From the IMG/VR virus record IMGVR_UViG_3300025917_000011, positions 1-34,600 of that record: 34,600 nucleotides of DNA, one strand, 5' to 3'. Shown here piece by piece: positions 702 to 34,600 of the stretch (the first letter of the stretch is position 1; each line of letters starts with the position of its first letter). The notes under the pieces are model-generated. The model was not told where the DNA came from. It saw only the letters and a list, made by a program, of their open reading frames with translations, and did no database searches. The position numbers and the translations under genes were made by a program. The stretch is from a virus.

Positions 702-1210
702 ACGCCTGGGCATACAAGCCTGTCGTGACCGTGATCGACGTGCTGGATACCGGCGCATGCATCGGTGGCGTGAAGGCCTTCGTGCTCAAACACGGGCTCG
801 CCATCGTCCGCAAAGCCGCTGATTTTCTCGACATCGAATGGATTCAGCGCGCCGCGATGAACGGCTACGGCTACGACTACGGCTACGGCTACGGCTACGG
901 CTACGGCTACGGCGACGGCTACGGCTACGGCGACGGCTACGGCGACGGCGACGGCTACGGCTACGGCGACGGCGACGGCTACGGCTACGGCGACGGCTAC
1001 GGCGACGGCGACGGCTACGGCGACGGCGACGGCTACGGCTACGGCTACGGCGACGGCTACGGCTACGGCGACGGCGACGGCGACGGCTACGGCTACGGCT
1101 ACGGCTACGGCTACGGCGACGGCGACGGCTACGGCGACGGCGACGGCTACGGCGACGGCTACGGCGACGGCGACGGCTACGGCTACGGCTACGGCGACGT
1201 GCTGAAATGA
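698..1210 (+). CDS. Early protein, 170 aa: a 55-aa N-terminal domain followed by a 112-aa Gly-Tyr/Gly-Asp dipeptide repeat tail.
   Basis: ORF 686..1210 trimmed to the ATG at 698 (GGGAGG upstream, ATGA overlap with the previous stop). Its own stop overlaps the next ATG at 1207. Confidence 0.6.
   Translation: MNAWAYKPVVTVIDVLDTGACIGGVKAFVLKHGLAIVRKAADFLDIEWIQRAAMNGYGYDYGYGYGYGYGYGDGYGYGDGYGDGDGYGYGDGDGYGYGDGYGDGDGYGDGDGYGYGYGDGYGYGDGDGDGYGYGYGYGYGDGDGYGDGDGYGDGYGDGDGYGYGYGDVLK
863..1198 (+). repeat. Tandem hexanucleotide array, 56 units: 32 GGCTAC, 23 GGCGAC, 1 GACTAC.
   Basis: Counted unit by unit from the sequence. There are no other substitutions and no indels. All six frames are open across it. 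Confidence 0.95.
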
Positions 1211-6825: not shown

Positions 6826-6870
6826 GGCTCAACCCTCAATCAAGCAACCCAAGCGGCTGCACCATAGGTA

Positions 6871-6888
6871 ATGCAAGTCGCGTGCCAA
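6871..6888 (-). promoter_or_regulatory. Sigma-54 (RpoN) type -24/-12 promoter reading leftward.
   Basis: The minus strand reads TGGCACGCGACTTGCAT, an exact match to TGGCACG-N4-TTGCW. The ATG at 6825 lies 46 nt after the -12 element. Confidence 0.6.
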
Positions 6889-6913
6889 CAGCTTTCAGCC
6901 CTATTCACATCAA

Positions 6914-6936
6914 AAAGTGACGCGCAACGTCACTTT
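6914..6936. promoter_or_regulatory. Palindromic site AAAGTGACG-N5-CGTCACTTT; candidate operator or enhancer site.
   Basis: Perfect 9-bp arms, read directly. Centred about 64 nt upstream of the predicted sigma-54 transcription start. Confidence 0.6.
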
Positions 6937-6948
6937 CCATGCCCTAAA

Positions 6949-6975
6949 ACGTCACCAAGTGACGCAATACGTCAT
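6949..6975. promoter_or_regulatory. Second site cluster: ACGTCAC-N3-GTGACG-N5-CGTCAT.
   Basis: Uses the same GTGACG/CGTCAC half-sites. The GTGACG-N5-CGTCAT dyad is centred 42 bp (about 4 helical turns) from the first dyad. Confidence 0.55.
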
Positions 6976-7103
6976 CTTCTTCCGTTCAGTCACCCAGCCC
7001 AACAACAACCCAACAACGGCCTTTCGTGTGCATGTGTTATGTGAGTGAGGATGGGTGGACGGGGAAAGTACACCCACACCCACCTATCCTTGGTTCTCAA
7101 ACC

Positions 7104-7124
7104 AATACTGATCAGTACAGTATT
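7104..7124. repeat. Palindrome TACTGATCAGTA (7106-7117) nested in AATACTG...CAGTATT.
   Basis: Perfect 12-bp palindrome centred on GATC, read directly. Confidence 0.85.
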
Positions 7125-7169
7125 CATCCAATCATTCATGGATCACCAAAGGTACAGCCATTGCCCGGC

Positions 7170-7189
7170 AACGGTCGATCAGGACCGTT
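7170..7189. repeat. Inverted repeat AACGGTC-GATCAG-GACCGTT.
   Basis: Perfect 7-bp arms around a spacer that contains GATC. Confidence 0.85.
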
Positions 7190-7410
7190 CAAACTGCTCA
7201 CTGATGGGAGAGCCCAAGAATGCTTTGTGAAGGGCGAACAGCATGGAATTGTTTTGCACCCACACTACGCCCACCCCAAAAAAATCCTGTGGAAAGGGTT
7301 GTGTAAAGGGTAGTTGACAAGTAAGTGGATTAACCTTTGATTTCTTATAGGAATCAATTATTTAGTAATACATTCATAAACAGTGGTTTCGACAGAGTGA
7401 TTTCCGACGA

Positions 7411-7643
7411 CTGCTTTTGATCTTGGCTACGGGCTTGCGATGGTTTTGATCTGGATTTTCTCAAAGGCTTTTGCTTTTGATCGCGGTAGGTCGAAGCGGT
7501 GTTTGAACGCTTGCTGGGGTCTGGCTCTTGATCTGCATGCTCGCGGTAGGTTGACCTAAGGCGAGCGTGGAGATCAAGAGCCAGGAAGGGGCGAAAGACG
7601 ATCCCGGGCTACGTAGGCGGGGCGATCAAAGGCAAAAGCCTTT
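7411..7643. other. Putative origin of replication: GATC-bearing iterons plus a nested dyad centred near 7553.
   Basis: Direct repeats of (T)GCTTTTGATC-like sequence have their GATC at 7419, 7448, 7479 and 7530, with the first three spaced about 30 bp apart. The 14-bp perfect arms 7521-7534 and 7571-7584, and the 22-nt arms 7463-7484 and 7622-7643 (21/22 complementary), share one centre. There are 7 GATC sites in 209 bp. An AT-rich tract (7321-7380, about 23% GC) and two 7/9 DnaA-box-like sites (7288-7296, 7324-7332) lie just upstream. Confidence 0.5.
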
Positions 7644-7739
7644 GGAGGAAAGCCGGGGAGCAGGAGCGAAAGCAGAAGCTTGCCTGATTCACGTACTCAA
7701 GCGTATGGGCAGGGGTTGGTATAAGATAAAGAAGGGATG

Positions 7740-7837
7740 CTCTGGAACCCGCATCAGGACGCGGGTACAGTAAATTGATTGACGCACGGAAAAATATCGT
7801 ATAGTTTATATGCCTTCATTGGATGCGGGTTCCAGAG
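7740..7837. repeat. Perfect 16-bp inverted repeat (CTCTGGAACCCGCATC at 7740-7755, GATGCGGGTTCCAGAG at 7822-7837) enclosing the rep promoter.
   Basis: Read directly. A T6 run follows at 7844-7849, just before the rep Shine-Dalgarno. Confidence 0.85.
7779..7807 (+). promoter_or_regulatory. Candidate sigma-70 promoter for the RepL-like gene: TTGACG-N17-TAGTTT.
   Basis: The hexamers are read from the sequence. TATAGT at 7800 is an alternative -10 with a 15-nt spacer. Confidence 0.4.
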
Positions 7838-7859
7838 GCTCGCTTTTTTGGAGGAAAAA

Positions 7860-8261
7860 ATGCAACCTGAACGGAGTACAGTAATTGGCGATGACTTCGT
7901 GATGCTGATCCAGAACAAGAAGTGGGGCCAAAAATTGATGGATTTTAAGGAGTTGGGGTTCCGGACCCGGGTGCTTTTGGTCTTGTTGGACAAGGTGACG
8001 TACGGGAACGAGGTGTGGCAGACGGGAACGAGCATTGCCAAGACCCTTGGAACCTCTCCCATGGTGGTGAATCGTCATTTGGCGTATTACGCGAAGGTCG
8101 GTCTGATTCGTCGCGGAGGGGATGGGGAACGCTTCAAGATTTATCTCAACGAGGATTTTTTCTGGAAGGGCGGACGTGTCGGACGCATCATCGCCAAGCG
8201 CCAGTCCACAACCCACCGGTTCCAGCGATCCCGTGAGGTGCCATCGTGCGAACGTACTTGA
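7860..8261 (+). CDS. Winged-helix replication initiator candidate, RepL-like.
   Basis: GGAGGA Shine-Dalgarno then ATG at 7860. The pattern RVLLVLLDKVTYGNEVWQTGTSIAKTLGTSPMVVNRHLAYYAKVGLIRR ... KIYLNEDFFWKG resembles RepL-family wHTH proteins. It lies directly downstream of the iteron region. GC is about 48%. Confidence 0.5.
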   Translation: MQPERSTVIGDDFVMLIQNKKWGQKLMDFKELGFRTRVLLVLLDKVTYGNEVWQTGTSIAKTLGTSPMVVNRHLAYYAKVGLIRRGGDGERFKIYLNEDFFWKGGRVGRIIAKRQSTTHRFQRSREVPSCERT

Positions 8262-8706: not shown

Positions 8707-9053
8707 GGACGAACCTTGGGGTGAGGATGGCGATCCGCCGCTCCCCCATCGCCGCTTCCGATTGGGCACGCGAACTGGGCGTGGGTCATTCCGAAATCGT
8801 CAAGCTGCGCGATGGCTGGTCCTGCATCCAGCACGGACCTTTGATGCAACGCCTTGTCCGCATGCTGCAAGCCTTGGATGAAGGGCGCGTGCATTGGGAG
8901 AAGCGTCCGGCCCGTCGTCCCAAGGGACGCCCCTATCACGTGCTGGTCGGCAACGAGAAGTTCACCCCTTCAACCATGGGCCTGTACGCCGATTTCACCA
9001 CCGGCCGCATGGTCAAACGCGCATGGAGCGAATCCGATGCGCTTTCCTGTTGA
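8694..9053 (+). CDS. HTH DNA-binding protein; candidate small terminase subunit.
   Basis: HTH-like segment ASDWARELGVGHSEIVKLRDG. It sits immediately upstream of, and overlaps, terL. The start is uncertain (8694, 8703 or 8727). Confidence 0.4.
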   Translation: METVRTNLGVRMAIRRSPIAASDWARELGVGHSEIVKLRDGWSCIQHGPLMQRLVRMLQALDEGRVHWEKRPARRPKGRPYHVLVGNEKFTPSTMGLYADFTTGRMVKRAWSESDALSC

Positions 9054-10833
9054 ACAATTCCGAACGTTCTGCGGTGCACTGCAACTCAATTCCAAGGAAC
9101 AGGGCCGGGTACGTTTCACGTGGAACGGTGCCCAGCGCCGTTTCATCGATCTTGTTGCCAAGGGACTGGAAAAAGGCATCCACAAGTTTGTCGTGTGCAA
9201 GGCCCGCCAGCTTGGCCTCACGACGGTTTGCCTCGCGTTGGACCTTTTCTGGCTGTATCGGAATGCCGGGATGCAAGGCGCGATGGCGGTTCCGAATGAA
9301 ACGGTCCGCGACCTGTCCCGCAACATCATCGACAATTACATCGACGGCCTTCCGCCTTCAATGAAGTGGCCGAGGCTGCTTAACAACCGCAACGAAATGC
9401 GTTTTGCCAACGAATCACGCCTTGCCCATCTGATCGCGGGTGGACGCAACTCGGGCGCGTTGGCACGCGGTCAGGGCCTCTCTTTCGTCCACGCCACCGA
9501 AATGTCGTCGTGGGCCGATCCCGAAGGCGTGATTTCGCTTGAGGCGTCGATGGCTGAAACCCACAAGCGCCGCCTGTATGTGTTCGAGAGCACCTCGCGC
9601 GGCTTCAACGTGTTCCACGACATGTGGAAGGACGCCGAGCTTTCGATGTCCACCGAGGCCGTTTTCATTGGGTGGTGGGCCAAGGAGGATTACCGGATCG
9701 AGGAAACCTCGCGGCTCTGGAACACCTATGGCCGCAGCCACTTGTCCGCCGAGGAAAAGATGTGGGGGAAGGAAGTCAAGAAGCTCTACGGCGTGGAACT
9801 GGACCGCCAGCAATGGGCGTGGTGGCGCTGGAAGTGGGCGGAAAGCGGCGGCAGTCGGCTGCTGCTCGCCGAATATCCCTTCACCGCCGACCAATCCTTC
9901 GTCATGACGGGAAGCGAATTTTTCCCCTTGCAAACGCTCCAGGACATGCTGAAACGGACGCATGGGGATGAAGGCGAGTCGTGGAACTACAAGCTCTCGA
10001 CCCGTTTCGAGAACACGGAAGTTTACCGCGACGAGGACGGTCCCTTGACCGTGTGGGAAGAACCGCAACCGGATTGTGCCTACGTGATCGCCGCCGACCC
10101 TGCCTACGGCGAATCGGAATGGGCGGACTGCTTTTGCATCGAAGTCCTGAAATGCACCGCGACGGGCGCCGAACAGGTGGCGGAATTCAACACGCCCGAT
10201 TGCACCATGTACGGCTTTGCGTGGATCATGGCGCATTTGGCAGGTGCCTATTCGACGCCCAGGCATGCACCGACCGTGATCCTGGAATTGGGCGGACCGG
10301 GGCGCGGCGTTTTGCAGGAACTTCAACGGATGCCAAGCCAGTACGCCGCGACCGTGGCGGGCCTTTCGGATCGTGCACGGGCGGAACTCGCCGACATTTT
10401 CGGTTCGATCCAGCACTACCTGTACCGGCGCCCCGACAGCCTTTCCGGTTCGTCCCTGTTGCAATGGGAAACCACGTGGAAGACCAAGCAGATCATGATG
10501 AACACGCTGCGTGACCTGATTGAACGCGGCATGATCAAGATTCGCAGCGAAGCGTGGATCAACGAAGCGCGCTACGTGACCCAGAACGGCACATCGATCA
10601 AGGCCGAAGGCCGCACGCAGAAGGATGATCGGGTGATTGCCATGGCCTTGGGCTGCATGGCGTGGCAGGAACAATTGATGCCCCAGTTGTTGATGGGCCG
10701 GGGCATGGACGAATATTCCGGAATGGAGCACAATGCGGTCGCGCGTTCGATTGGGAACTGGCTGTCCAACCTCAACGCACAGACCGAAGAATCGAATTGG
10801 CAGAAAGCCGGGAGCATGTCATGGCAAGACTGA
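9037..10833 (+). CDS. terL: Terminase large subunit.
   Basis: ATPase motifs are KARQLGLTT (Walker A-like) and LSFVHATEMSSW. RNaseH-like nuclease motifs are YVIAADPAYGESEWADCF and KDDRVIAMALGCMAW. ORF 8854..10833 is trimmed to the ATG at 9037. Confidence 0.9.
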   Translation: MRFPVEQFRTFCGALQLNSKEQGRVRFTWNGAQRRFIDLVAKGLEKGIHKFVVCKARQLGLTTVCLALDLFWLYRNAGMQGAMAVPNETVRDLSRNIIDNYIDGLPPSMKWPRLLNNRNEMRFANESRLAHLIAGGRNSGALARGQGLSFVHATEMSSWADPEGVISLEASMAETHKRRLYVFESTSRGFNVFHDMWKDAELSMSTEAVFIGWWAKEDYRIEETSRLWNTYGRSHLSAEEKMWGKEVKKLYGVELDRQQWAWWRWKWAESGGSRLLLAEYPFTADQSFVMTGSEFFPLQTLQDMLKRTHGDEGESWNYKLSTRFENTEVYRDEDGPLTVWEEPQPDCAYVIAADPAYGESEWADCFCIEVLKCTATGAEQVAEFNTPDCTMYGFAWIMAHLAGAYSTPRHAPTVILELGGPGRGVLQELQRMPSQYAATVAGLSDRARAELADIFGSIQHYLYRRPDSLSGSSLLQWETTWKTKQIMMNTLRDLIERGMIKIRSEAWINEARYVTQNGTSIKAEGRTQKDDRVIAMALGCMAWQEQLMPQLLMGRGMDEYSGMEHNAVARSIGNWLSNLNAQTEESNWQKAGSMSWQD

Positions 10834-11241: not shown

Positions 11242-11741
11242 AGCGCTGGCGCTGCAACGCGTGTCTCAAACGCGGCCTTCCTGCCGAGGAATGCGAATGG
11301 GAAGATCATCTGACCCAAAGCCATTGCCGGGCGTGCGGCGAAGCGGCCACGCGCATCATGGAATTCGGCTGTTTCCAGTGCCACGACGAAGGTGTTATTT
11401 TTTTCGGGGAAGTCGCAAGCTCGCATCCTTGCCCCGAATGCGGCTCGGACGCCTTCCGGATCGTGTATGCACCTGCCGTGATCGGGCAGGCGAGCCGTGC
11501 CGCGCATGCCGCCGCCGACAAGCTGCTCGAAACTGAATTGCAGAACCAGAAAATCTCGACCACCAGCCTCAAGCGTGAACCCAAGCGCAAGGCCGAAGCC
11601 GCTCCCGGCCCCTTCGCAGCCCACTGGTCGGACGCCAAGGAACTCTTACCGGCAGGCGGCCGGGGCGTAGGGGGGCAATTGCCCTTCGGCATGCCGCGTC
11701 CCATTACTGCCGTCGTCGGAAAGTACGACGGTCCAGCCTGA
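11238..11741 (+). CDS. Protein with four CxxC pairs (double zinc ribbon), 167 aa.
   Basis: CNAC, CRAC, CFQC and CPEC pairs. GTG start overlaps the upstream stop. Lies between terL and the portal gene. Confidence 0.55.
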   Translation: MKRWRCNACLKRGLPAEECEWEDHLTQSHCRACGEAATRIMEFGCFQCHDEGVIFFGEVASSHPCPECGSDAFRIVYAPAVIGQASRAAHAAADKLLETELQNQKISTTSLKREPKRKAEAAPGPFAAHWSDAKELLPAGGRGVGGQLPFGMPRPITAVVGKYDGPA

Positions 11742-13420
11742 TGCGTATACCTCTCGCCATCGACGAGCGGTCGGCATGGCTGGATCGTACACGCCAGCAG
11801 TTGCGGCGTTCGCTCGACCAGCGCCGTGGCCACTATGGATCGTGGCGGACGTGGTATCTACATGGGGGATTTGAGTGGGGCGCGCGTTACAACAAGATCG
11901 GGCCGCAACTCAACACCCTTTCGTCCTATCTCTACTCGCCGCGTTCGGTGCGTTTTGGCCTGAACGCGGGTCCTTTGGCGGATGAAGGCCAATTGGGCAT
12001 GTACGAAGCAGTCTCGGACCGCCTGCGTTCGTTGTGGGGCGAGTCCGGCGCAGATCAGCACTACGCCCACGGCGCCCTGTGGTCGCTGGTGTACGGCTGC
12101 GAAGTTCAGAAATTCGGATGGGGCGCCAAGCGTCCACGCTGTGATGCCGTGGGGGCAGGCAATTTCGGCGTGTGGCGGGATGATTTGCCGGGACTCGAAG
12201 GCCAGCAGGCCCTTTTGCACACTTTTCGGCTGGACGTCGATACGGTGCGGGGTTGGCTGATCGGCGCGGGCATGCCAGAAATGGAAGCCGAGCGCTGGAT
12301 ACGTCGCTGGGGCGAAGGCAAACCTGCTGCACACATGGCACAAGGCACGCTCGCGATCGGTGCGCAGAATCCGATCGTCTGGAATGGGAGCGCGCCGGGC
12401 ACCGTGGCGGGGGGCGTGGCAGATTGGGGGTCGACTTCAGCAGTCTATGACGCGGCTTCGGACACGCCAACGCTCGAAATCGAAGAAATCTGGGCGATGG
12501 ATGATCGCACCCACGATTACCGCATCTTCCAGACAGTGGAACACGATTTGATCCTTTCGGATCGCAAAAATGATTTCCTGCCGCACCACCATCCCTTTGT
12601 GCAGATGACGGTCGATCCAATCGACGATTATTTCTGGGGGTATTCGACGGTCGCGCAATTGATTCCCCTGCAGGCGTGGCGCGAAAAGCGCATGAACCAG
12701 TTGGACCGCCTGTTCGCGCGCCAAGCCAATCCGCCGATGGTCTTTTCAGGCTTCATGGGCGGTGTATCGGATGAAAAGGCGGCGGCGGTCATGCGTCGCG
12801 GTGGTTTGCTCGCCAATTCCCAGACGCCAAGCGCCAAGGTGGACTTGCTCACCCCAAACATCAATGAGCTTTCGTTCACCGAAATTGGCGAGATCGATCA
12901 GATGTTCAATGAAACACTGGGCTTGACCGCTGCTTTGCAGGGCGCATCGACCGGCGGCGAACGTGGCGGTGAACACGCACGCGCTGTCATGAGCGCGGGA
13001 GCGGGCCGTTTGACCCGGCGCATGATGAATGTGGAACGCGCGGTCGCCGAAGGCGCCTCGTTGTTGCTGGGGTTGGCGCGTCGATACGACGATACGATGC
13101 TCGTGACGGAGGATGGCATGAAGTTCACGCTGGCGATGTTGCCGGGCGATGCCAATGTCGAAGTCGCTTCGCATTCGGCGTCACCCTTGTTTGCAGGACA
13201 GGCCCAGCAACAGGCTGAACAATTGATGGAATTGGGCGTTATCGACAAGGAAGATTTCCTTGACCTTGCCGACCCGCCGATGGCGCAAGCCTTGAAGCAG
13301 CGGTTGAAGAAACGCGAGGCGCAACAGGCGCAGCAGATGCAGCAGGCGATTGCATCGGTGCCCGAAGCCGAACGCGGAAGCTTGCTCGGCAAGATTTTCG
13401 GCGGAAGGAGCAAACACTGA
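11741..13420 (+). CDS. Portal protein (putative).
   Basis: 559 aa, located after the terminase and before scaffold and capsid. The acidic/Gln-rich C-terminus is typical of portals. The call is positional plus size; no diagnostic motif was seen. Confidence 0.7.
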   Translation: MRIPLAIDERSAWLDRTRQQLRRSLDQRRGHYGSWRTWYLHGGFEWGARYNKIGPQLNTLSSYLYSPRSVRFGLNAGPLADEGQLGMYEAVSDRLRSLWGESGADQHYAHGALWSLVYGCEVQKFGWGAKRPRCDAVGAGNFGVWRDDLPGLEGQQALLHTFRLDVDTVRGWLIGAGMPEMEAERWIRRWGEGKPAAHMAQGTLAIGAQNPIVWNGSAPGTVAGGVADWGSTSAVYDAASDTPTLEIEEIWAMDDRTHDYRIFQTVEHDLILSDRKNDFLPHHHPFVQMTVDPIDDYFWGYSTVAQLIPLQAWREKRMNQLDRLFARQANPPMVFSGFMGGVSDEKAAAVMRRGGLLANSQTPSAKVDLLTPNINELSFTEIGEIDQMFNETLGLTAALQGASTGGERGGEHARAVMSAGAGRLTRRMMNVERAVAEGASLLLGLARRYDDTMLVTEDGMKFTLAMLPGDANVEVASHSASPLFAGQAQQQAEQLMELGVIDKEDFLDLADPPMAQALKQRLKKREAQQAQQMQQAIASVPEAERGSLLGKIFGGRSKH

Positions 13421-15483: not shown

Positions 15484-16491
15484 ATGCCAACGCTCGGCAC
15501 AGGCATCATACCCTCTGGCGCACTTGGTGCCCAGCTCTCCGCTGTCACCCGGCGCGGCATCACCGAAGATGCCATTGTTGCCTTGTACCAGGCATCGCCC
15601 ACGCTGGCGATCTTGTTCTCCAAGGCCAATGCGGCTTCGGGCGGTGTCTCGTCCGTCACGGTCCCGGTGCAGTTGCAGCCGATGACTTCGGGTTCGTGGA
15701 CCGACTTCGGGGGCACCTTCCCAGCGCCGCAAGTAATGGCGGGCATGGTTCCGGCAGAATTCAACCTCAAGGGGTTGGTGGTGCCGGTTCCGCTGTTGGG
15801 CATGCAAACCATGGTACAGGTGGATGAAACCGTGGTGAGCTTGCTCGAAGCCACCATGGACGATGCCAGCAATCAGGCTGTGCAAATCCTGACCACCGCA
15901 TTGTTCAACAACAGCACGAACAACCAGCAGTTGATGGGCCTGCCTGCCGCGATCAGCGCCACGGGCACCTACGGCGGCATCAATCGCGCGACCTACACGA
16001 ACTGGCAGGCCATCGCGATTGCCGAGGGCGCCGTTGCGCCGACCCGCAATTCGGTGCTGCTCGACATCATCAAGGTTATTGCCGGTCAAGCGGGCGGCCC
16101 CGGTGGCGAACGTCCGACCTTCGGCGTGATGGGTCCGCTGACGTGGCACAAGCTGGCCACGGACTTCGCGGCGGAAGAGCGCTACAACGTCAATCCGGGC
16201 GGCTCGTACGCCGATGGCGAATTCGGCGCACAGGCGATGTTCCAAGCCCTTTCCGTGGGCGGGGTGCCGATCTACCTCGACGCCAACATGACGGAAGGCG
16301 ATGCGTACTATCTCAATGAGAATTACGTCTCGCTGTACTGCCATCAGGACGTGAGCTTCGGATTCACGGGCTTTGAATCCACACTGATCAACAACCAGAT
16401 CGGTTTCATCGGCGCATTGCTCTCTCTGCTCGAACTGGTGGTGAGCAAGCCGTCCACGAACGCCGTCGCCACCGGCTACACCCACTCTTGA
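15484..16491 (+). CDS. Major capsid protein.
   Basis: 335 aa, located after the scaffold. The sequence character is capsid-like (ATGTYGGINRATYTNWQ, PTFGVMGP, VPIYLDANM). No search was run. Confidence 0.8.
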   Translation: MPTLGTGIIPSGALGAQLSAVTRRGITEDAIVALYQASPTLAILFSKANAASGGVSSVTVPVQLQPMTSGSWTDFGGTFPAPQVMAGMVPAEFNLKGLVVPVPLLGMQTMVQVDETVVSLLEATMDDASNQAVQILTTALFNNSTNNQQLMGLPAAISATGTYGGINRATYTNWQAIAIAEGAVAPTRNSVLLDIIKVIAGQAGGPGGERPTFGVMGPLTWHKLATDFAAEERYNVNPGGSYADGEFGAQAMFQALSVGGVPIYLDANMTEGDAYYLNENYVSLYCHQDVSFGFTGFESTLINNQIGFIGALLSLLELVVSKPSTNAVATGYTHS

Positions 16492-16820: not shown

Positions 16821-17933
16821 ATGGCCCTGACCTCCGCATTCGCGCATCGACGGGATTGGCTCGCTGATTACCTGTTCGACGTAAGGTTCCTGTTGCACGA
16901 TACGTCCGGAAATTACTTTCAGGACTCGGAACTCGTTGCCTACATCAATGAAGCACGCACCACGGTATGCGTCGATACCGGCTGTCTGCGCAAGCTCCTG
17001 GCCGTCACCCTGCCGGGTGGCATCGAAACCTTCTCCATCGGTGGCGTATTCGCCATCCCCGCCAATACCGCACCGCCGGTGGGCGGCGTTGCGCCCTATT
17101 CGCTGGTAAGCGGCGGCGGCGCCACGGCTACGGCCAACATCACCACGGTCCCGCTGACCGTGACGGTCACCAACGCCGGAAAGTATTACCAACCGCCCTT
17201 GGTGACGTTCGACGTGGGCGCGCCGGGCATTGCGCTGGGCGCTTCGGGCACGGCGGTTTTGAACGCCACGAACGGTGTTGCCAGCGTCTACGTTGATTTC
17301 GACAATGGCTCGTTCAACAATGCCGGGCTCACGCCGAACGTGATCTTTACGCCGGTGGGGCAGCCCGCGCAGTTGGATGTGGTGGGCGGCTTTCTCAATC
17401 TCACCAGTTTCGGTTCCGGACAATCAGGCGGCGTCTACATTCAGGACAGCGCCGCCACGCCCGTCCTGACGGCCCTGAATGGCGTTTCGATCCTTGATGC
17501 CGACATTGCCTCGATTGATCAGGTGACGGTGTTGTGGGGCAGCCAGCGCGTGCCTTTGCGCAATTACGCCTACAGCGACTTCAGTGTGCAGGTGCGCGGC
17601 ATCGTGGGCTTCCAGTCGGTGCCGGTGGCGTTTTCCATGTACGCCGACAAGCTCTACATTGGTCCGATCCCGAACCAATCCTACGCGTACGAACTCGACT
17701 GCATCATGTACCCGGCGCCGTTGCTGGATTTTTCGACCATGGGCGAGATCAATGATCGTTCATCCATCATGGCGGTCAAGTATTACGCGGCGTTCCGCGC
17801 ACGCATGAGCCAAGGCGATGCCGCCGCCGCCGAGGCGTTCTTCCAGTTGTATGGGCAGCGCATCGGCTGGTCCGCCAACCGCTTCACCACGCGGCTGTCG
17901 CAATTGTTCCCCGACAACGAGAACTTGGAGTGA
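16821..17933 (+). CDS. Virion structural protein, 370 aa; possible head-tail adaptor or tail tubular protein.
   Basis: ORF track. The position matches the adaptor or tubular-protein slot in podovirus gene order. The function is inferred from position only. Confidence 0.6.
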   Translation: MALTSAFAHRRDWLADYLFDVRFLLHDTSGNYFQDSELVAYINEARTTVCVDTGCLRKLLAVTLPGGIETFSIGGVFAIPANTAPPVGGVAPYSLVSGGGATATANITTVPLTVTVTNAGKYYQPPLVTFDVGAPGIALGASGTAVLNATNGVASVYVDFDNGSFNNAGLTPNVIFTPVGQPAQLDVVGGFLNLTSFGSGQSGGVYIQDSAATPVLTALNGVSILDADIASIDQVTVLWGSQRVPLRNYAYSDFSVQVRGIVGFQSVPVAFSMYADKLYIGPIPNQSYAYELDCIMYPAPLLDFSTMGEINDRSSIMAVKYYAAFRARMSQGDAAAAEAFFQLYGQRIGWSANRFTTRLSQLFPDNENLE

Positions 17934-22745: not shown

Positions 22746-23143
22746 GAAAGTTGAACGATCTTGAAGTGATCCTGCGCGCCGATGAAATACGCGCCATGGC
22801 AACCCGTATCGTGCGCAAAGTCGAAGGTATCCCGATTCCAACGCCAACGTTGATGCTTGATCTTGTCCAGCGGGGCATCCTGCACGCATGGGAGCACGCC
22901 GGGACGCTGGGGCTGGTGCAAGTGCATTGCCAAGGCCCCCGCATCCTTGCCCGCGTCTGCTATGCGGCGGGCGACTTGAAAGGCGTCCTTCGGTGGTACG
23001 ATGCGTGGGAAGCCGAGTGCAGGCGCTACCGGGTCGATGAAATCCGGATTGGCGGCCGTCCCGGCTGGTTGCGCGTGAGCCGGAAATTGAAGCGCGGATT
23101 CGAGGCCACGGACGACGGCGACATCATCAAGAGATTATGCTGA
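22742..23143 (+). CDS. Hypothetical protein, 133 aa.
   Basis: ORF 22571..23143 trimmed to the ATG overlapping the upstream stop (ATGA). Confidence 0.5.
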   Translation: MRKLNDLEVILRADEIRAMATRIVRKVEGIPIPTPTLMLDLVQRGILHAWEHAGTLGLVQVHCQGPRILARVCYAAGDLKGVLRWYDAWEAECRRYRVDEIRIGGRPGWLRVSRKLKRGFEATDDGDIIKRLC

Positions 23144-23727
23144 TGGGCGGCAAAGGCGGTTCCTCACAGCCTTCACAAACCCCTGCCGAGGCCATGGCCT
23201 ATCAGCAGGCGCAACCGTTCCTGCAAGAGTACAACTCGGGCAAGCTCAACGTGCCCAATCAAGCGGTCGCCAACCTTGCCGACACCAACCAGACCGCCAG
23301 TACGCTGCAACAGTTCGCCAACAGCGGCATGCTGGGCGATTCGTCCCTTGCCAATCTTGTCGGTACAGTCAAGAAAGGGGATGCATCGGGCGGCATGCAG
23401 GCCGGGGCGGGCAGCGTGATCGACCTTTCCAAGCTCTCACTGACCCAACAAATCCTGCAAACGGACCTCAATACCGGCATGGCTTACTTGTCGATTTCCA
23501 GTGGGCAGGCCGCTGATCTTGCGGGCGTGCAGCAGGAACAAAGCGCCGCCCTGGCGAATGCGTTGGGTAAAGCCGCTGATTCCGCCGCAGGCATCCTTTC
23601 CAGTTCCGGCCAAACGCCGCAGGCGGGAACTGACATGTCCACCGGCTACACGGGCGCATCCTCCGTGGGCGACTTGTGGGCGACGGGCGGCAGTTCCGAA
23701 TTGGCTCCTGATATGGCGACCGCATGA
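23137..23727 (+). CDS. Internal virion protein candidate, 196 aa, Gln/Ser/Ala/Gly-rich.
   Basis: ORF track. Position and composition resemble podovirus internal core proteins. The ATG at 23143 is an alternative start. Confidence 0.55.
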   Translation: MLMGGKGGSSQPSQTPAEAMAYQQAQPFLQEYNSGKLNVPNQAVANLADTNQTASTLQQFANSGMLGDSSLANLVGTVKKGDASGGMQAGAGSVIDLSKLSLTQQILQTDLNTGMAYLSISSGQAADLAGVQQEQSAALANALGKAADSAAGILSSSGQTPQAGTDMSTGYTGASSVGDLWATGGSSELAPDMATA

Positions 23728-24431
23728 TGGCCACGACGACCGCTCCCGCTCCCGCAACGCCAAGCCCTGTAGCGCCATCTGGCATGGGGCAAGGCTCTGC
23801 CATGGCCTCGCTTGCGCGTGCCCCGCAGACGCCAGCACAAGCCGCCCCTGCGCCGTCGCAAGCGGCCAATCAGATCATGCACGCCCCGGCCACGGCAGCA
23901 ACAGGATCGGGCTTTGTGCCGGAAACGGGCACGCCCACGCAGCGCGCCGTGGCGATGCCGAATGGTTTGCCCACCCAACAGAGTTCCATGCTGCACGACC
24001 TTGCGAGCATTTCGCTTGGCTTCGCCAACCCTGTCGCGCCGGGCCAAGTGACGAAGCAACAGCAGCAGGTGCTTTCGGCGTGGCAGCAGAACGCCCAGTC
24101 CGATTACAGCCAGTACATGGCCTCGCACGGTTTCAGCAACCTTTCCGCCGATCCGGGCGCGCTGTTCAACGAAGAAGCTCTGGTCGCGCAATCGCAATGG
24201 TCGGTGATGGACACGCAAGGCGCGATGACGGCGCTGAAATTGTCGGTGTCCGATTACGATCAGTGGATGAAAATCGAACAGGAAAAAAAGAAGGAAAAGG
24301 GCGCCTTGATCGGAAAGGTGTTCGAGATTGCCGGAGCCGTGGTCGGCTTCGTCTATGGTGGCCCTGCCGGGGCTATGCTGGGCGCCGAAGTCGGTGGGTA
24401 TGTAGGCGGGGCCGTCGGCGGCGCAACTTAA
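23724..24431 (+). CDS. Internal virion protein candidate with a C-terminal glycine-zipper membrane segment.
   Basis: ATGA overlap with the upstream stop. The C-terminus reads GAVVGFVYGGPAGAMLGAEVGGYVGGAVGGA. Confidence 0.55.
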   Translation: MMATTTAPAPATPSPVAPSGMGQGSAMASLARAPQTPAQAAPAPSQAANQIMHAPATAATGSGFVPETGTPTQRAVAMPNGLPTQQSSMLHDLASISLGFANPVAPGQVTKQQQQVLSAWQQNAQSDYSQYMASHGFSNLSADPGALFNEEALVAQSQWSVMDTQGAMTALKLSVSDYDQWMKIEQEKKKEKGALIGKVFEIAGAVVGFVYGGPAGAMLGAEVGGYVGGAVGGAT

Positions 24432-24449
24432 TTCAGAGGAATGAATCTC

Positions 24450-25751
24450 ATGGCAACCCAAGCAATCCAGCAAGCGCCCGCGGCGCCCCAACAGCCTTCG
24501 CCCGCCGCGCCTGTACTTGGCAGCGACATGGGCGGCTTTTCGGGTATCGCCAAAATGTACGATCAGACGCGCGCCAGCGCAGGGGCTGCCAGTGCAGCCC
24601 AACAGCAACAGATTGCGCCGCTCGAAGTCCAGCTTGACCAACGCGAGGCCGCGGGCGCCGCAGAACAAAAACGCATGGAAGCCATGTATGACGAGCAGAT
24701 GCACGGCCTGAACCTGATGCAGCAGCGCCAGCGCCTGATAACCATCAACCGCGCGCAAGTGCTGCGCAAGACCCTCCCCATCATCGGCATCTTCGCCTTG
24801 ATCGGAGGCGCGTTGGATGGGGTGACCGGAGCCATGTCGGCCTTGGGCGGCGGGTTGGCCGGGCTTTCGCAGGGCATGAAGGAGCGGTATCAGCAGGCGT
24901 GGAGCCAATACAACACGCAAGTCAAGACCATGTTTGACCAGGTGAAGGATACGCAGGCGCAATTGAAGGCGATCCAGAACGACAATTCCAAGACGCTGGA
25001 TGAAAAGCTTGCGTTGCTCAAAATCACGGGCGCGAACATGCCGGTCTACAACAAGATCAACAACAGCGAGGCCGATGCCTACGCCAAGTGGGTCACGGAA
25101 ACGACTTTGATGGACAAGCGTATCCAACTTGCCGAAACCGCCCACAAGGGCGCAGCAGCCGTGAACAAGCGCGTGACCGTCACCGCCGTCAATGATGCGA
25201 TGTCGCAGGCCTTTCCTTTCGCGGCACCTGATCTTTCCAATGCGGAATTCACCGGACAGAACGCGACGGCAGCGTTGTCGGCAGCACGCGGCGCATGGAA
25301 GCAGGACCATCAGATGGCATCGCTTCAGATTGCCACCATCGCGCAGGATTACATGCACAAGTCGGGCAGCGATTGGCCGAGTGCCCTGCAACATACGATC
25401 AGTTGGCTCCGCACGAACAAGTTGCTGGAATCGGGCAAGACGCCCACGCTGGACGATACGGACATCGAATCGCGCATGTTGGGCGGCGATTTGCCGCAAG
25501 GCGTGAAAATCCAGTTGGCGCCGGGTACACCCAAACCGGTCGCGGACGCCGTGCGCGCAGCCGCCAAGGCCGATCATGCGGCGACGACAACCGCTGCACC
25601 CAAGGCCAAAACGGGTACGACGATCTACGTTGCGACCAGCGGACAGCGCTACAGCGCCGCCGATGTGGCGGCTGCGGCCAAGAAAGCAGGCGTGAGCGTG
25701 GCTGATTACGTCAAGCAGAAAGGGCTTTCTTCCATCAAGCTCGGTGGATAA
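24450..25751 (+). CDS. Internal virion protein candidate, about 433 aa, with a central hydrophobic segment.
   Basis: ORF 24441..25751. The second ATG (24450) has better spacing from the GAGGA Shine-Dalgarno. Central segment LPIIGIFALIGGALDGVTGAMSALGGGLAGL. Confidence 0.6.
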   Translation: MATQAIQQAPAAPQQPSPAAPVLGSDMGGFSGIAKMYDQTRASAGAASAAQQQQIAPLEVQLDQREAAGAAEQKRMEAMYDEQMHGLNLMQQRQRLITINRAQVLRKTLPIIGIFALIGGALDGVTGAMSALGGGLAGLSQGMKERYQQAWSQYNTQVKTMFDQVKDTQAQLKAIQNDNSKTLDEKLALLKITGANMPVYNKINNSEADAYAKWVTETTLMDKRIQLAETAHKGAAAVNKRVTVTAVNDAMSQAFPFAAPDLSNAEFTGQNATAALSAARGAWKQDHQMASLQIATIAQDYMHKSGSDWPSALQHTISWLRTNKLLESGKTPTLDDTDIESRMLGGDLPQGVKIQLAPGTPKPVADAVRAAAKADHAATTTAAPKAKTGTTIYVATSGQRYSAADVAAAAKKAGVSVADYVKQKGLSSIKLGG

Positions 25752-25754
25752 TCC

Positions 25755-28700
25755 GTGGCCGATACCGCGCCGGTGCCTTTGGAGGATTTGCCCGATGTGG
25801 GGCCGAAGGCGTCAGACAGCGCGCTTCCGAAATTGGGCAGCAAGCCTTCGTCCGGTTTCATGCGTTCCGCATTGGACGTGCTTGGCGCAACCCTTACGGG
25901 TGAAGCCACTGCCGTCGCAAAAGGCGCTGGCAGCGTGGCGCAATCGATTGCGGGCGTGATTGGTGGACCCAAGCTCGAAGCTGCTACCCAAGCCGAAGCC
26001 GACAAGTTCACGCCGCACTACCAGCCCATGACGGAAGCGGGCGTCGTGACACAACGGTTTGAACAGCGTTACATCGAAGGCGTGAAGTCGCAGGAAAAGC
26101 AGATCGCCAGCGCCATCGCCAACGGCCAGAGTTTCGAGGACGAGCCGGGCCAATCCATGTGGGAACTGGTGCAGGTGCCCATCCAGGGCGCGCTGCATGG
26201 CGCGACTTCAATCGTGGGCTGGGCGGCGGGCGTGGGATATACGGCGGCGGGGCAACCCGCCAAGGGCGCGCAGATTGAAACATCCATCGGGAATTTCGTG
26301 CCTGCTCCGCAACCGGTGACTGCGCTGGGACGCGAGTGGAATACGTGGGGCATGTTGTTTGCGCCCTTGACTGAAACAACCCACGCCGGTGAGGCGGAAT
26401 ACACGGCGGACATCAAAGACCCTTCGGCATGGGCGCACTACGCGTTCGAGGCCGGATCGGCTGGTTTGATGCTGGTAGGCGGCAAAGGACTAGGCGAAGC
26501 GGGCGGCGCTATCGGACGCGCCACGGGATTGCTGGACAAGGATGTTGCGGTTCCCCTTTCCACCAAGCGCGAAGTGCCCGATGAAGTACGGGTGCCCGAG
26601 CGTCCCGGTGCCAAGGCGGAAGAAACATCGGCAGCATCGGCGGAGCCCAAGGACACGCTGTTCGACACGGGCGATGCCGAGATCGAACGGGAAGCGGCGC
26701 GGCAAGCACAGCGCGATCAATACCATGATCTCAACCGCAGCCGCGAAGAAGAAAATACATTCACGCCGTACAAGGACGAGAACGGCCAACCGCTGACGGT
26801 CTACCACGGCACCAACGGCGACTTCACCGATTTCAAGACCGAAGCTGATAGCGTGTTCAACTATGGCCGGGGCGGCAGGGGCGGCAGCATTGGCATCTAC
26901 ACGTCGCCCAATCCTGACTATGCCGGGGCCTTCGCCGACACGAGCAAGCCGGGGGCCAACCTGCGCCCCGTGCATGTGCAGTTGCGCAATCCACTACATG
27001 CCCGGTACGAAACCTTCAACCTTGCCGATCAGGAAAAGGTGCTGGAACAGGCGAAGGCGGCGGGTCACGATGGCGTGATCTTCCACAACGGCAACGTGGT
27101 TGATGAAATTGCGGTATTCGATCCGGCCAACATCCGCAGCATCTTCGACAAGAATGCGTTCGAGTCAGTATCGGACCAGCAGGCCGATTCGATCCTTGAC
27201 TATCAGCGCACCCTGCACGACGCGGCCCAAGCGCATGCGGACGATGCTGATTTCAGTACGGCCCAGCAGAGCGCCGCACGCACGGATGAACTGTTACGCG
27301 GCGGCGGTCCCGGCCATGCGGGCATCCCAAAGGGACAGTACACCGGCGACTGGCACGACTACCTCGCGGCAATGGCTGAACTCGCCGGTACAGATATTGG
27401 CGCGTTGCGATTGAGTTTCAACGAACTTGAGGGCTTGGACAAGGAGCCGGGCGAGTTCGATGATCTCGAAACCTTGTCGCATGAAATCCCGGAACGGGAT
27501 GAGAATGGGTTGGAAGGCCTGACGCCACGCGCCAAGGAGCATCTTGCATCGCTCAAGGCCAAGCGAAGCCTGAAAGCCGCCTTCGGGAACAAGGTTCGTG
27601 ATGTGCGTAGCGGGCTTTACAAGGTGTACTCGGGCGCGACCAGCAAGGCGAGTGAAGCTGACATTGCCCACGTCGCGCAAACCATGGCGCTGGGCGCGAT
27701 GGAACGCGAACGGATGGAAGCCGTCAATGCGGGCATCCGCAAGGTATTCGCGCGCATGAATGATCAGGACTTGGCGGCGTGGTGGCGGCATTTCCAGAAA
27801 GGCGCGCCGATGCCGGATCACTTGGGCGACAAGGCGGATTGGGCGTCCATCGACAAGTTCTACGAAGATATCTTCGCGCGTGGCATGGAAGAGCGCAGAC
27901 TGGCGGCCGATCCCGTCAACGAAATGAAGCGCGCCAAATACTTCCCCCAGTACGCGCGGCCCAAGGATTGGACCCAACGTTTGAACCTTGGGCTTTCCGG
28001 CAAGGAACGCGCCTTCGATACGATGGACAATCTCTTGGATGCCGGGGTTGAACCCTTGTCCATGAACCCTGCCGTGCATTTCCACTACTGGCTGCGCGGG
28101 CAGGAACGCGCCATCGGTCGGGCGGAAATGCGCTGGCAGAAAATCCATGGCGGGTTGCGCGTGGTGCCCAAGTCCTACGTCCCCAAGCCGGATGAACTGA
28201 CGGTCGAATCGCCGGACGGGTTGGTACGCTATGCGGGGAAAGCCGATCTTGTGTCCTTCATGAATAAGAACGTGCTGGCCAAGCCGTTCATGGGATTCGA
28301 GGCCAACTTGATGGCCACGCTGCGCGCAGTAGGGGTGGTCAAGAATTCCGCACAAGCAGTCCTGTTCGGCTTCAACCCCTTCCACGGCATCCACATCGGC
28401 GTGTTCGTGCGGCCCCTGCACGGGCTGGCTGAATCGCTTTCCTTGATCGACAACAAACTGACACCGAGCGGCGTCGTGGACACGGCCAAGGCATTCGGCA
28501 AGATGTTCACGACGGCGGATCGGCCCAAGGTGAACGGCGCCAAGTTGAGCGCGCGCAGCATCCGCAAAATCGCTTCGGGTAAACAGGGCGGCATCCGGTT
28601 CAACCGAAAGACCAAGGCCGTGGAATTTCCGGAGGGCGGCGATCCGTTCCTTGACGTGATCGATGTCGTACGCCACGGCGCCGATCCGTCCATCCTCAAA

Positions 28701-30515
28701 ACGCCTGCACAAGAAATTCTGCGGCGCGCGGCGGTGGGCGGCTATGAAATCCACAACCCCGAATGGACGAACGTGGCGCACGCCAAGTTCCTCGAAGGCG
28801 TGCAGGATGCCACGGCCTCGGGCTACATGCGTGCGGCAGGCTGGACGATTCCGGCTTTCCTGCGTTCGCTTGGCTATCCGATGATGGATCAGTTTGTGCC
28901 GCTGGTGAAGTTGCGGGCCTTCGCCGCCGACACGGAACGCTGGCACCAGGCAAACCCCACCGTTGAACCCGGATCGCCTGCCGAACGCGTGGCCTTTGCG
29001 CGTGCGCGGCGCGAGATCGATCAGCGGTTCGGGGAAATGAACACCAAGCTTTTGGGCATGCACCCGCTGCTCGCGGCGGCGTTTCAGGGATCGATGCTTT
29101 CGTTCGGCTGGAACTTCGGCCTTGCCAGCCAATTCGGTGGTGGCGGCAAGGACGCGGTACACAAGCTGTTCGATGCGGCGACCGGCGAGCAACGTGAAAA
29201 GATGCGCAGCCGCGCGTTGTACGCCTCCCTGTACGCGGGTTACGCCTGTCTGGCCGGGGCTATCGTCACCAAGGCGTTCAGCGGCAAGGACCCGGAAACC
29301 TTGAAAGATTGCATCTACCCCATCGTCGGCACTGACAAACAGGGCCAAGCGATCCGGGTCAAGTTGCCGTCACTCATGAACGATTTTGGCGCCGAGTTCT
29401 ACAACACCCGCGACAAGGGCGTGTTCGAGGGCACCCGCGAGACGCTGGCCAACAAAGCAGCCCCCATCTTCAACAGCTTCGACCAGTTCATCACCAATGA
29501 GAACTGGATGAACCAGAAGATCAGCGACCCTTACGCCCCGGCGATCCAGCAGATCGCCCAGCGGTTCAAGGCCGTCATGGAAAGCAACCTGCCGATTTCC
29601 ATCGCCCAGGCCGAACGCCAAGTCCACAACGTCACGCCTGCCGAACAGAAGGCATTATCCATCGCCGCTTTCGCGGGCATCAACAAGGCTCCGGCCTACG
29701 TTTCCACCCCGGCCCCCATCGAGCAGATTTACCGGGTGTCGGCGATCCTTGGCGGTCAGGAAACCTATTCCAGCAACCAGCTTTACCAAGCCGAGAACCG
29801 CGCCAACCTGCGCGACTTGTTCGAAGAAGGGCAGGGCAGCGGCGACTTCGGCGCCTACCGCATTGCCGAACGCCAATTCCAGACCAAGTGGAACACGCTG
29901 CACCCCGATACGCCGCTGACCAAGACAGGGCTGCGGGCGCTACGCAAGCGGCTGCGCTCGCCGCGTGCCGCCATGACCTTGCAGAACGAGCAGAATGAGG
30001 GGCAGGAGCACGTCTGGCAGTCTATGCAAGACTACGGCGACGGCATGGCCATGCTGGCCCAATACCTTCCCTACTTCCACACCACGGTCAAGCAGCAGAT
30101 GTGGAAGCGCATGACGCCCCAGCAGCAGGCCGAGCTGAAAGCCCAATGGGGTGCGCTCAACGCTCCATTAATACCTGCGGCATCTACAGTCCATGTGCAT
30201 GCGCCTGTATTCATGGCCATTCCAAGACCAACTGGACTTATTCAAGCGGGGAACATCGATTTGTCGGCACGCCCCACTGTACATAATGCAGATGGATCAA
30301 TCAGCACGGTTCGATCAATAACGATAACCGATGACAAAGGGCGCGCTACCTTGATACCTACGGTCGTAGGCAATAAGGTCGTATCCAATCAGGATGCAAT
30401 TGAACACTTCCGCAAGACGGGCGAATTGTTGGGTGTGTTCGACAACGAAAAAGATGCCGATGCGTACGCGGAAGCCCTACATGAACAACAGGCAAAAGAG
30501 TATTTGCCCCATTAA
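25755..30515 (+). CDS. Giant internal/ejection-type virion protein, 1586 aa, with an ART-PolyVal-like ADP-ribosyltransferase domain (aa 335-469).
   Basis: Its size and its position last in the virion block fit a T7 gp16-like role. The domain motif is [15 protein letters not shown] ... [17 protein letters not shown] ... VHVQLRNPL ... [36 protein letters not shown] start. Confidence 0.85.
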
Positions 30516-31073: not shown

Positions 31074-31508
31074 TCACGCGGCCCACTGCCCCGTTTCGAT
31101 CATGTTGGCGAGGCGCGTGTAGCGGACTGGAAGCTCCCGGTAAACCTTCGTGGCGCGAAGATCATCGGCAGCCGCCTGCCAGCGCTGGGCGGCGATGTAG
31201 CCGAAGAACACACTGAACGTCGCAATCGACCCGGTGCCGAGATTGAAGAGCATGTCGGCGATGGCGGCTTGGCGGACATCATTCAGCAACGCCCACCAGG
31301 ACTCGGTAGACGCTACCGCCAGCACGGCATCCAGATCGTGCTGGAATTGCAGCATGGCCGCTTGATTCAGGAGCGCCCACACGTCGGTTGCCGGTGGCGA
31401 GGCATCGAGGTTGTGCCCCACGCCCCACGTACGGTGCCCGGTGGTGTCTACATACGGCCAGATGCGTAGCCCTTCATCGTGCAGGATCAGCGATTGCATG
31501 TCAGTCAT
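31074..31508 (-). CDS. Endolysin, T4-lysozyme-like muramidase (GH24).
   Basis: LHDEGLRIWPYVDTTGHRTWGVGHN carries the Glu-8aa-Asp-5aa-Thr catalytic pattern of GH24 lysozymes. Confidence 0.85.
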   Translation of the reverse strand: MTDMQSLILHDEGLRIWPYVDTTGHRTWGVGHNLDASPPATDVWALLNQAAMLQFQHDLDAVLAVASTESWWALLNDVRQAAIADMLFNLGTGSIATFSVFFGYIAAQRWQAAADDLRATKVYRELPVRYTRLANMIETGQWAA

Positions 31509-34295: not shown

Positions 34296-34490
34296 ATGTG
34301 CACTATTCCGGGCGACAAGATGGCTGAAGCCATGCGCGATGAAATGCAGCGCATGGACGTGATGGCCAAGACGCTCAACCAAATTAATGCGGTATTCGGA
34401 CCCGCTTTGCAGCGGGCACGCGAGCAAGCAGACAAAATTCAACGCGCCGCCGAGCTGTGCCGCGAAGTCGACGAGGATGCGCAGCCATGA
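34296..34490 (+). CDS. Hypothetical protein, 64 aa.
   Basis: ORF track; GGAGGA lies 8 nt upstream. Confidence 0.5.
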   Translation: MCTIPGDKMAEAMRDEMQRMDVMAKTLNQINAVFGPALQRAREQADKIQRAAELCREVDEDAQP

Positions 34491-34600
34491 AAGCCAATGG
34501 AACAGCAAGGGTCAAAGTTTGTCGGGCCCTCGCGCCGAGTGCGGCGCCCACCACCAAGACAGTTGATGTACGCATCACTGCGAAACGCGTCTATGTGCCT
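34474..34600. repeat. Terminal direct duplication, right copy of 1-127.
   Basis: Exact 127-bp identity with the window start. Unique genome length is therefore about 34,473 bp. Confidence 0.9.
34487..34600 (+). CDS. Duplicate 5' part of the ORF annotated at 14..232, truncated by the window end.
   Basis: Lies inside the 127-bp terminal duplication and is the same gene as 14..232. Confidence 0.5.
   Translation, partial: MKANGTARVKVCRALAPSAAPTTKTVDVRITAKRVYVP

Follow-up and report, generated by a model that had tools for sequence, protein, structure and literature searches.

What does an ADP-ribosyltransferase (ART) domain do inside the last and largest virion gene of a small phage genome? The question is raised by the IMG/VR record IMGVR_UViG_3300025917_000011, of which positions 1-34,600 were analysed (the whole stretch of 34,600 nucleotides, here called the window) and in which one gene encodes a giant protein of 1586 amino acids with an embedded ART domain. 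The answer that we hold to be somewhat better than an even bet is that this polyvalent protein is packaged in the virion and ejected on infection, and that its ART would modify a host macromolecule by ADP-ribosylation ahead of any phage gene expression. We infer packaging, ejection and activity from the position of the gene, its conserved synteny, a module that recurs in annotated internal virion proteins, the polyvalent architecture of the protein, precedent in other phages and the published prediction for the ART family.

The preliminary description of this DNA, made from its letters alone, had placed an ART-PolyVal-like domain at 26757-27161. In frame this interval corresponds to residues 335-469, every motif string quoted for it is present, and comparison with family profiles bears the assignment out: the single Pfam family found in the whole protein is PF18760 (ART-PolyVal), at residues 341-467 with E=6.6e-16. 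With 59.8 bits against a gathering cutoff of 31.2, and with profile positions 1-137 of 140 covered, the match lies far beyond chance. Over the same stretch PHROGs gave only two families, both of unknown function, and a profile search of PDB sequences gave sub-significant matches to Tpt1/KptA, PARP12 and an exotoxin, running from strand 1 to strand 2. A word-indexed homology search with the ART segment alone returned nothing, which we read as a limitation of that search and not as biology.

Ten ART-PolyVal domains were aligned, namely the window copy, those of five full-length relatives and four from P0006, a multi-ART polyvalent protein of 2360 amino acids. Residues P346, H351, G352, T353, F357, F360, A390, G437 and D439 are invariant in this alignment, and position 382 is aromatic throughout (Y in the window copy, F or W elsewhere). 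At position 451 five of the ten, the window copy included, have E and three have Q, while D and C occur once each; an aromatic or hydrophobic residue and then x-V-F follow. The catalytic strand of PARP enzymes, N-E-Y-I-V-Y, resembles this motif. An AlphaFold2 model of residues 335-472 (predicted local distance difference test score, pLDDT, 73; predicted template modelling score 0.71) has strands at segment positions 14-19, 47-50, 68-76, 80-83, 106-111, 114-120 and 126-128. The ART-PolyVal family was grouped with Tox-ART-HYD2, and its active site was described as having a histidine in strand 1, a tyrosine in strand 2 and an acid in strand 5 (PMC5512222). In the window domain H351 lies on the strand at 14-19 and Y382 on that at 47-50, and there are two candidates for the acid: E451, which belongs to an E-hydrophobic-x-V-F motif on the last strand but one, and the invariant D439, with which the strand before it starts. 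The predicted fold agrees, if weakly, as the top 50 Foldseek matches of the model in the PDB are almost only ART folds (tankyrase 1 and 2, PARP2, PARP12, PARP13 and the MbcT toxin; probability 0.99). Alignment and model together support the view that the window domain is an ART of the H-Y-E/D clade with an intact motif set. Membership of the Alt/VIP2 clade (R-S-E) was considered and rejected; the sole ART match is PF18760, the motif is H-Y-E/D, and the two clades are separate in PMC5512222.

Full-length relatives of the giant protein are 53-95% identical to it, and the ART domain is kept in eight of eight of them (P0001-5 and the L004- and L005-encoded proteins). The type of ART varies. In P0002 the N-terminal region is 77% identical to that of the window protein and the central region 89%, with only 28% identity in the ART. 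Another ART-PolyVal subtype, in which position 451 is Q, is found in close relatives (P0002-4; L003 10001-14449). P0005 is more distant, with 59% identity in the central region, and retains the ART subtype of the window protein at 50% identity. P0009, the closest outgroup, shares the N-terminal region and the scaffold and has ~540 unrecognised residues at the ART site. In these alignments the ART segment behaves as a swappable cassette within the close family. P0004 has in addition an ART-like insert of ~150 amino acids with the motifs HHGS...FFLT...RYA and a weak match to DUF3990. A 54%-identical homolog with the same ART subtype as the window protein is encoded at 8558-13030 of L005 (DATFGT010000080.1), a 34.2-kb contig binned with a Rhodanobacteraceae metagenome-assembled genome; as this contig may itself be a phage genome, a Rhodanobacteraceae host is only a hint.

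Beyond the ART, about 1100 further residues had been described as carrying no recognisable motif. This is correct with respect to Pfam, which gave no match there, but two recurring modules are present, an all-alpha core domain and a short module at the C-terminus. The core domain was delimited by an exhaustive HMMER search of representative protein clusters (50% identity) with a profile of residues 470-1488, which gave 2364 clusters at E<=1e-3, or 1385 when E<=1e-10 was required; almost every one of them aligns only to residues ~990-1370. It lies near the C-terminus of mostly large proteins (700-2663 amino acids), with a median of 92 residues after the matched region; the few relatives whose contigs were looked up are encoded on contigs of up to 45 kb. 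Over this domain neither the window protein nor any of 15 scanned relatives gave a Pfam or PHROG match. An AlphaFold model of residues 975-1420 (pLDDT 70) consists of little other than helices, several of them very long. Its best matches in BFVD are fragments of large phage polyvalent proteins, namely a 'DNA 3'-5' helicase' fragment from an uncultured Caudovirales phage (3e-6), an LPD-containing protein (3e-4) and a protein of Cellulophaga phage phi46:3 (1.5e-3); an LPD protein of E. coli phage PTXU04 (1.2e-2) and 'internal virion protein D' of Roseobacter phage CRP-5 (E 0.083) match more weakly. A search of PDB sequences with the scaffold profile gave noise only. In a tblastn search of phage records a scaffold representative found no match, and the family is essentially unrepresented there at BLAST sensitivity; a word-indexed search with the scaffold alignment returned one fragment, which we again read as a limitation of the search.

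In the relatives examined, the cargo that could be identified is N-terminal to the core domain. GGDEF domains occur in P0010, P0012 and P0013, with RadC/JAB also in P0012, and P0017, encoded in a phage-like region beside an integrase, combines a PBECR5 nuclease with LPD37. In a sample of 36 further core-domain proteins, three contain GGDEF, two ART-PolyVal, one S-adenosylmethionine (SAM) lyase and one DUF7178, and most are without recognisable cargo; a local hidden Markov model (HMM) of the ART located the domain in 4-5 of 149 representatives. The middle region at residues ~620-900 is, by its coverage profile, common to roughly a tenth of the distant relatives, and the N-terminal HMM matches P0009 alone among 149 of them. 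Judged by these profile matches, most of the giant protein is not orphan sequence but part of a very large scaffold family with variable effector cargo, and the core domain merits a family description of its own. A bolder proposal, which we make tentatively and regard as doubtful, is that the core domain, together with a wider region of ~750 amino acids that some relatives have in common, represents a large undescribed family of effector-delivery ejection proteins, with a fixed C-proximal scaffold and an N-proximal slot for enzymes that recombination exchanges. The ART would then be tethered at the DNA entry site and would modify whatever first meets the genome (a defence nuclease, RNA polymerase or a DNA end), unlike the diffusing Alt enzyme of T4. 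The contents of such a slot may include two ART subtypes, tandem ARTs, GGDEF, SAM lyase, JAB and a BECR nuclease.

The C-terminal module links the giant protein to known virion proteins. When the protein was compared by tblastn with 50,697 phage records, only its last ~95-137 residues matched, in 19 records and at 45-55% identity, and the genes concerned are annotated as 'DNA transfer protein', 'minor structural protein', 'IVP-C-like protein' (IVP, internal virion protein) and similar. The module has the motifs ...LIPTV...LGxF...YAxxLH and no Pfam model. In Klebsiella phage Klyazma it forms the C-terminal end of the last gene of the IVP-A/B/D/C cluster, directly before the holin, and in Salmonella phage SPN1S it lies inside a minor structural protein of 938 amino acids, in the position of the epsilon15 core proteins. 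It is also present in the polyvalent proteins P0006-P0008, its placement being N-terminal, internal or C-terminal. A profile of the module gave noise against the PDB, save a weak, non-significant likeness to the C-terminal part of the tape-measure protein 9g8s. The module recurs in Uetakevirus, Zobellviridae and other podophages. In the window protein, sequence comparison indicates, an IVP-C-type module is appended in this lineage.

Is the giant protein then an ejection protein of the T7 gp16 type, as the preliminary description had it? Its place as the last and largest gene of the virion block is confirmed, with the order conserved in L003. It is the last large gene after the tail genes in a run of small and large genes, exceeds 1000 amino acids and is largely alpha-helical. 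Podovirus internal virion and ejection proteins show such an arrangement and are usually recognised by size and synteny, not by sequence (PMC4819975, PMC8954989). Position, size and helical content agree with the gp16 analogy, but no significant homology was found, and neither Pfam nor NCBIfam found an N-terminal lytic transglycosylase domain in the giant protein. Four HMMs were used to look for homology, three of them for parts of the protein (core domain, central region and N-terminus) and one for the 36-protein alignment. A match to SPN1S_0018 (E=1.8e-4) was set aside, as it arose in a database of 10 sequences and in a low-complexity N-terminal region. Proteins of the IVP-D type are known to diverge beyond recognition (PMC4819975), so that an analogous role is compatible with the lack of a significant match. 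What the giant protein has in common with T7 gp16 and IVP-D is that it is the last and largest gene of its run, longer than 1000 amino acids and helical, and that a domain with an enzymatic function only in the cytoplasm is embedded in it, as in N4 gp50 with its virion RNA polymerase (vRNAP) and H66 gp60 with its methylase. It differs in having no significant sequence or profile match to them and no fold match to solved structures, the only hint of IVP-D being the BFVD match to phage CRP-5 (E 0.083). The hosting of cytoplasm-destined domains by internal virion proteins was described for the N4 vRNAP, within an IVP-D homolog, and for the methylase of Pseudomonas phage H66 gp60 (Hardies et al. 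2016, PMC4819975).

The open reading frame (ORF) of the giant protein looks like a real gene. Its GC content by codon position (0.63/0.45/0.73) resembles that of the neighbouring structural genes, a GGTGGA sequence precedes the GTG codon, the start lies 3 nucleotides after the stop of the 436-aa gene, and relatives open with the same MADT... N-terminus. Searches with the whole gene or protein gave little: megablast against the 50,697 phage records and a PDB sequence search found no match, NCBIfam contained nothing for it, and the Pfam scan showed no RNA polymerase (RNAP), MPTase, MuF (Phage_Mu_F), LPD or nucleic-acid-binding domain. Gene order argues for a virion function. On the 31.6-kb contig L003, genes for capsid protein and adaptor are followed by further genes, by genes for 197, 184 and 421 amino acids, by the ART protein gene and by minus-strand lysis genes, which is the order of the window; the 184-aa protein, syntenic with the second of the three small upstream genes, has a weak Gly-zipper_YMGG match in Pfam. 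Several large ORFs after the adaptor are probably tail genes. The lysozyme gene begins the lysis cassette, so the virion block ends there. The coordinates of the features are collected in Table 1.

Table 1. Coordinates of the giant gene, its parts and the genes around it, as positions in the 34,600-nucleotide window
Feature	Position	Strand	Remarks
Large terminase (TerL)	8854-10833	+	Virion block
Portal, SU10/P22 type	11741-13420	+	Virion block
Major capsid protein	15484-16491	+	Virion block
Adaptor, SU10-type	16821-17933	+	Virion block
Upstream partner gene 1	23137-23727	+	196 aa; low-complexity, Q/A/S/G-rich; same operon; syntenic 197-aa gene in L003
Upstream partner gene 2	23724-24431	+	235 aa; C-terminal glycine-zipper-like hydrophobic segment (hydropathy scan)
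Upstream partner gene 3	24441-25751	+	436 aa; one predicted transmembrane helix; syntenic 421-aa gene in L003
Gene of the giant polyvalent, ejection-type protein	25755-30515 (stop included)	+	1586 aa; GTG start; from ORF list and translation
N-terminal region, aa 1-334	25755-26756	+	Gly/Ala-rich, moderately hydrophobic stretches; conserved only in the close family and P0009
ART-PolyVal domain, aa 341-467	26775-27155	+	Pfam, alignment of ten domains, AlphaFold, Foldseek
Codon of H351	26805-26807	+	Verified
Codon of Y382	26898-26900	+	Verified
Codon of D439	27069-27071	+	Verified
Codon of E451	27105-27107	+	Verified
Middle region, aa 470-989	27162-28721	+	Highly conserved among close family members
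All-alpha core domain, aa ~990-1370	28722-29864	+	Exhaustive HMMER search, coverage analysis, AlphaFold
C-terminal module of ~95 aa, aa 1487-1586	30213-30512	+	tblastn, annotated contexts in SPN1S and Klyazma, alignment
Phage lysozyme gene	31074-31508	-	Pfam Phage_lysozyme, E=8.4e-8; same arrangement in L003

The proposed sequence of events begins late in infection, when the giant protein would be made and placed inside the capsid along with the products of the three small upstream genes, two of which have predicted membrane segments. On the next infection the giant protein would leave through portal and tail, either before the DNA or with it, as do T7 gp14/15/16, the P22 ejection proteins and the N4 vRNAP. 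The helical scaffold would help to form or anchor a conduit across the envelope, and the ART would arrive in the cytoplasm as a free domain or stay bound at the site of entry. Since no HExxH motif or peptidase domain was found, the ART may act while tethered to the ejected protein. It would bind NAD+ via H351 and Y382 and transfer ADP-ribose to a host macromolecule, for takeover or counter-defence; candidate targets are defence proteins, nucleic acids and, if Alt is a guide, host RNAP. IVP-D-type proteins have a copy number of roughly 3-4 per virion, as found for phiRIO-1 gp37 (PMC4819975) and given in the annotation of T7 gp16. If the same applies here, each particle would bring in no more than a few molecules of the enzyme, as would suit a catalytic effector.

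Several observations weigh against delivery of an active enzyme. With respect to the ART, confidence in the model is moderate, residues 30-42 of the segment form a disordered loop, and the fold match is weak, the best Foldseek E value being 6e-3 and the template modelling score about 0.5. The canonical acid position is occupied by Q in the subtype of P0002-4 and by C in one P0006 domain, so the acid is not conserved in every member. A search of the giant protein for an HExxH motif or a peptidase Pfam domain that could release the ART found neither. With respect to ejection, the four HMMs gave no significant match to T7 gp14/15/16, the C-terminal part of N4 gp50, Klyazma IVP-D/C or SPN1S 0017-0019, and the core-domain model is without a fold match in the PDB (best E 0.84). 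The C-terminal module, which provides the link to internal virion proteins, is confined to the window protein and P0001, which is 95% identical to it, among the family members, and is absent from the 91% IMG/VR relative L004 and from more distant members. The literature searched yielded no virion proteomics, activity assay or known target for any ART-PolyVal domain.

Some of these points can also be read as favouring another function. The ART could act only as newly made protein late in the same infection, in the manner of T4 ModA/ModB, the giant protein being unpackaged or purely a structural or ejection component. This would fit a gene that lies in the late block and is presumably expressed late, as well as the missing release peptidase. 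We nevertheless consider it unlikely, as embedding in a helical 1586-aa protein of the virion operon is hard to explain for a purely late enzyme; moreover, the scaffold is common to thousands of large proteins, of which the relatives examined carry other cargo including SAM lyase and a nuclease domain, and one module is shared with internal virion proteins. A delivered ART could also modify nucleic acid instead of protein, be it the entering phage DNA or its ends, with protection against nucleases or restriction as the result, or host DNA or host RNA. Other ARTs of the H-Y-E clade act on nucleic acids, such as DarT, Tpt1/KptA and some PARPs. Within the superfamily the window domain falls on the H-Y-[EDQ] side, and it shows weak profile and fold matches to Tpt1/KptA and PARPs, and an ART that is not released by a peptidase would stay tethered to a protein expected at the DNA entry site. 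However, Pfam detected no nucleic-acid-binding domain, and the published prediction for the family is modification of host proteins (PMC5512222), so that we give this choice of target little credence.

That the domain is dead or repurposed, serving as a module for binding or sensing NAD+ or ADP-ribose, as an NADase or as a structural insert, is a still less probable explanation. The variation of the strand-5 acid (E/Q/D/C), with Q in one subtype of close relatives, and the moderate confidence of the model would be in line with it, but H351, Y382, E451 and the invariant D439 are all present in the window copy. Furthermore, the domain is retained in all eight full-length relatives and has been acquired independently in distant scaffold relatives, and retention together with independent acquisition suggests selection for an activity. 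Least of all do we expect a toxin or fitness factor directed against competing bacteria or eukaryotes, or a superinfection exclusion factor, although ART-PolyVal was grouped with Tox-ART-HYD2 (PMC5512222) and phage ARTs of the HYD2 family were suggested to be toxins or virulence factors (PMC9503650). No secretion, adhesion or immunity gene adjoins the giant gene, no integrase match was found among the ORFs scanned with Pfam or PHROGs, and the ART is internal to a virion-block protein instead of forming a C-terminal toxin tip.

Delivery of an ART with the virion, which we prefer, is not a new concept. Iyer et al. (2017) described ART-PolyVal in phage polyvalent proteins, with the N4-like vRNAP of Roseovarius Plymouth podovirus 1 as prototype (PMC5512222). 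ARTs are the commonest macromolecule-modifying domain of polyvalent proteins, which phages and conjugative elements encode, and were predicted to be injected with the DNA (PMC5512222, PMC9503650), and delivery in the style of the packaged T4 Alt has already been proposed as a model for the ART-PolyVal family (PMC5512222). The window protein is large and combines distinct domains (the ART, the domain at residues 990-1370 and the C-terminal IVP-type module); its gene is located among virion genes and its domains recombine with other effectors in relatives. By this architecture, the 1586-aa protein is a further example of the polyvalent/ART-PolyVal class predicted in 2017 and not a new kind of system. 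It shares with the proteins described then the Pfam family, the layout of histidine, aromatic residue and acid, and the nature of a very large late-gene protein of a short-tailed phage. It differs in having no RNAP, MPTase, MuF or LPD partner domain, in its other scaffold and in its single ART copy, of which some polyvalent proteins have up to 12. T4 Alt is likewise a late-made, virion-carried ART that acts on the host before phage gene expression, as is proposed here, but it belongs to the R-S-E (Alt/VIP2) clade and is a stand-alone head protein of a myovirus, unlike a domain in a giant podovirus protein. The MuF-fused effectors of temperate phages (MuF-VIP2 and others; PMC9206674, PMC9503650) also consist of a head-associated carrier with interchangeable effectors including ARTs; the window protein differs in its carrier, which gave no Phage_Mu_F match, and in its effector, which is internal and N-proximal, not C-terminal. 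New are the very large carrier family lacking Pfam and PHROG models, the ART in an exchangeable slot with natural E/Q and tandem variants, and the appended IVP-C-type module.

The remainder of the window was inspected as well. An exact direct repeat of 127 nucleotides (1-127 = 34474-34600) indicates that the genome is complete at 34,473 bp, being either terminally redundant or assembled as a circle; its GC content is ~60%. The giant protein is the sole ORF of more than 700 amino acids in the window, which makes it unlikely that the phage has a single-subunit RNA polymerase of its own; the early genes are probably transcribed by host RNAP. Few genes of the window match PHROGs, and no tRNA genes were found in it. 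By capsid protein the closest relatives, at 47.6% identity, are two metagenomic genomes labelled 'Bacteriophage sp.', MW202753 and MW202825; the giant protein is absent from both, so they supply no proteomic support. PADLOC reported no defence-system similarity in its search and nothing for the giant protein; residues 36-108 of the 436-aa protein weakly matched ZorA (MotA/ExbB-like; E=7e-5), with no stretch passing alone, a resemblance that is probably due to coiled-coil or compositional similarity and not to homology. At 686-1210 (+) lies an ORF of 174 amino acids with a GC content of 0.92 at third codon positions and no PHROG match, whose last ~115 residues consist almost entirely of repeated GY and GD dipeptides (GYGYGDGYGDGDGY...); tandem repeats of 12 and 18 nucleotides at 783-1274 encode them. 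About 1 kb at ~6870-7860, upstream of the terminase region, is without a convincing ORF and includes the lowest GC content of the genome (0.486 for 7001-8000); this gap may be a regulatory, origin or packaging region. A scan of the 7.0-7.9 kb gap for the sigma-70 consensus gave matches no more numerous than in shuffled sequence, and one terminator-like hairpin is present at 7825-7843.

For an assay of an ART-PolyVal domain this locus offers a compact system, with a complete 34.5-kb genome and a single ART with an intact motif set. Nature provides variants in which the ART is of the E451 or the Q subtype, in which a further ART-like insert is present or in which the cargo is unrelated. If packaging of the giant protein is confirmed, a wider idea would follow, in which podophage ejection proteins deliver SAM lyase, GGDEF-type domains, nucleases and ARTs. 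Counter-defence carried by the virion in this way would be invisible to screens that are restricted to early genes.

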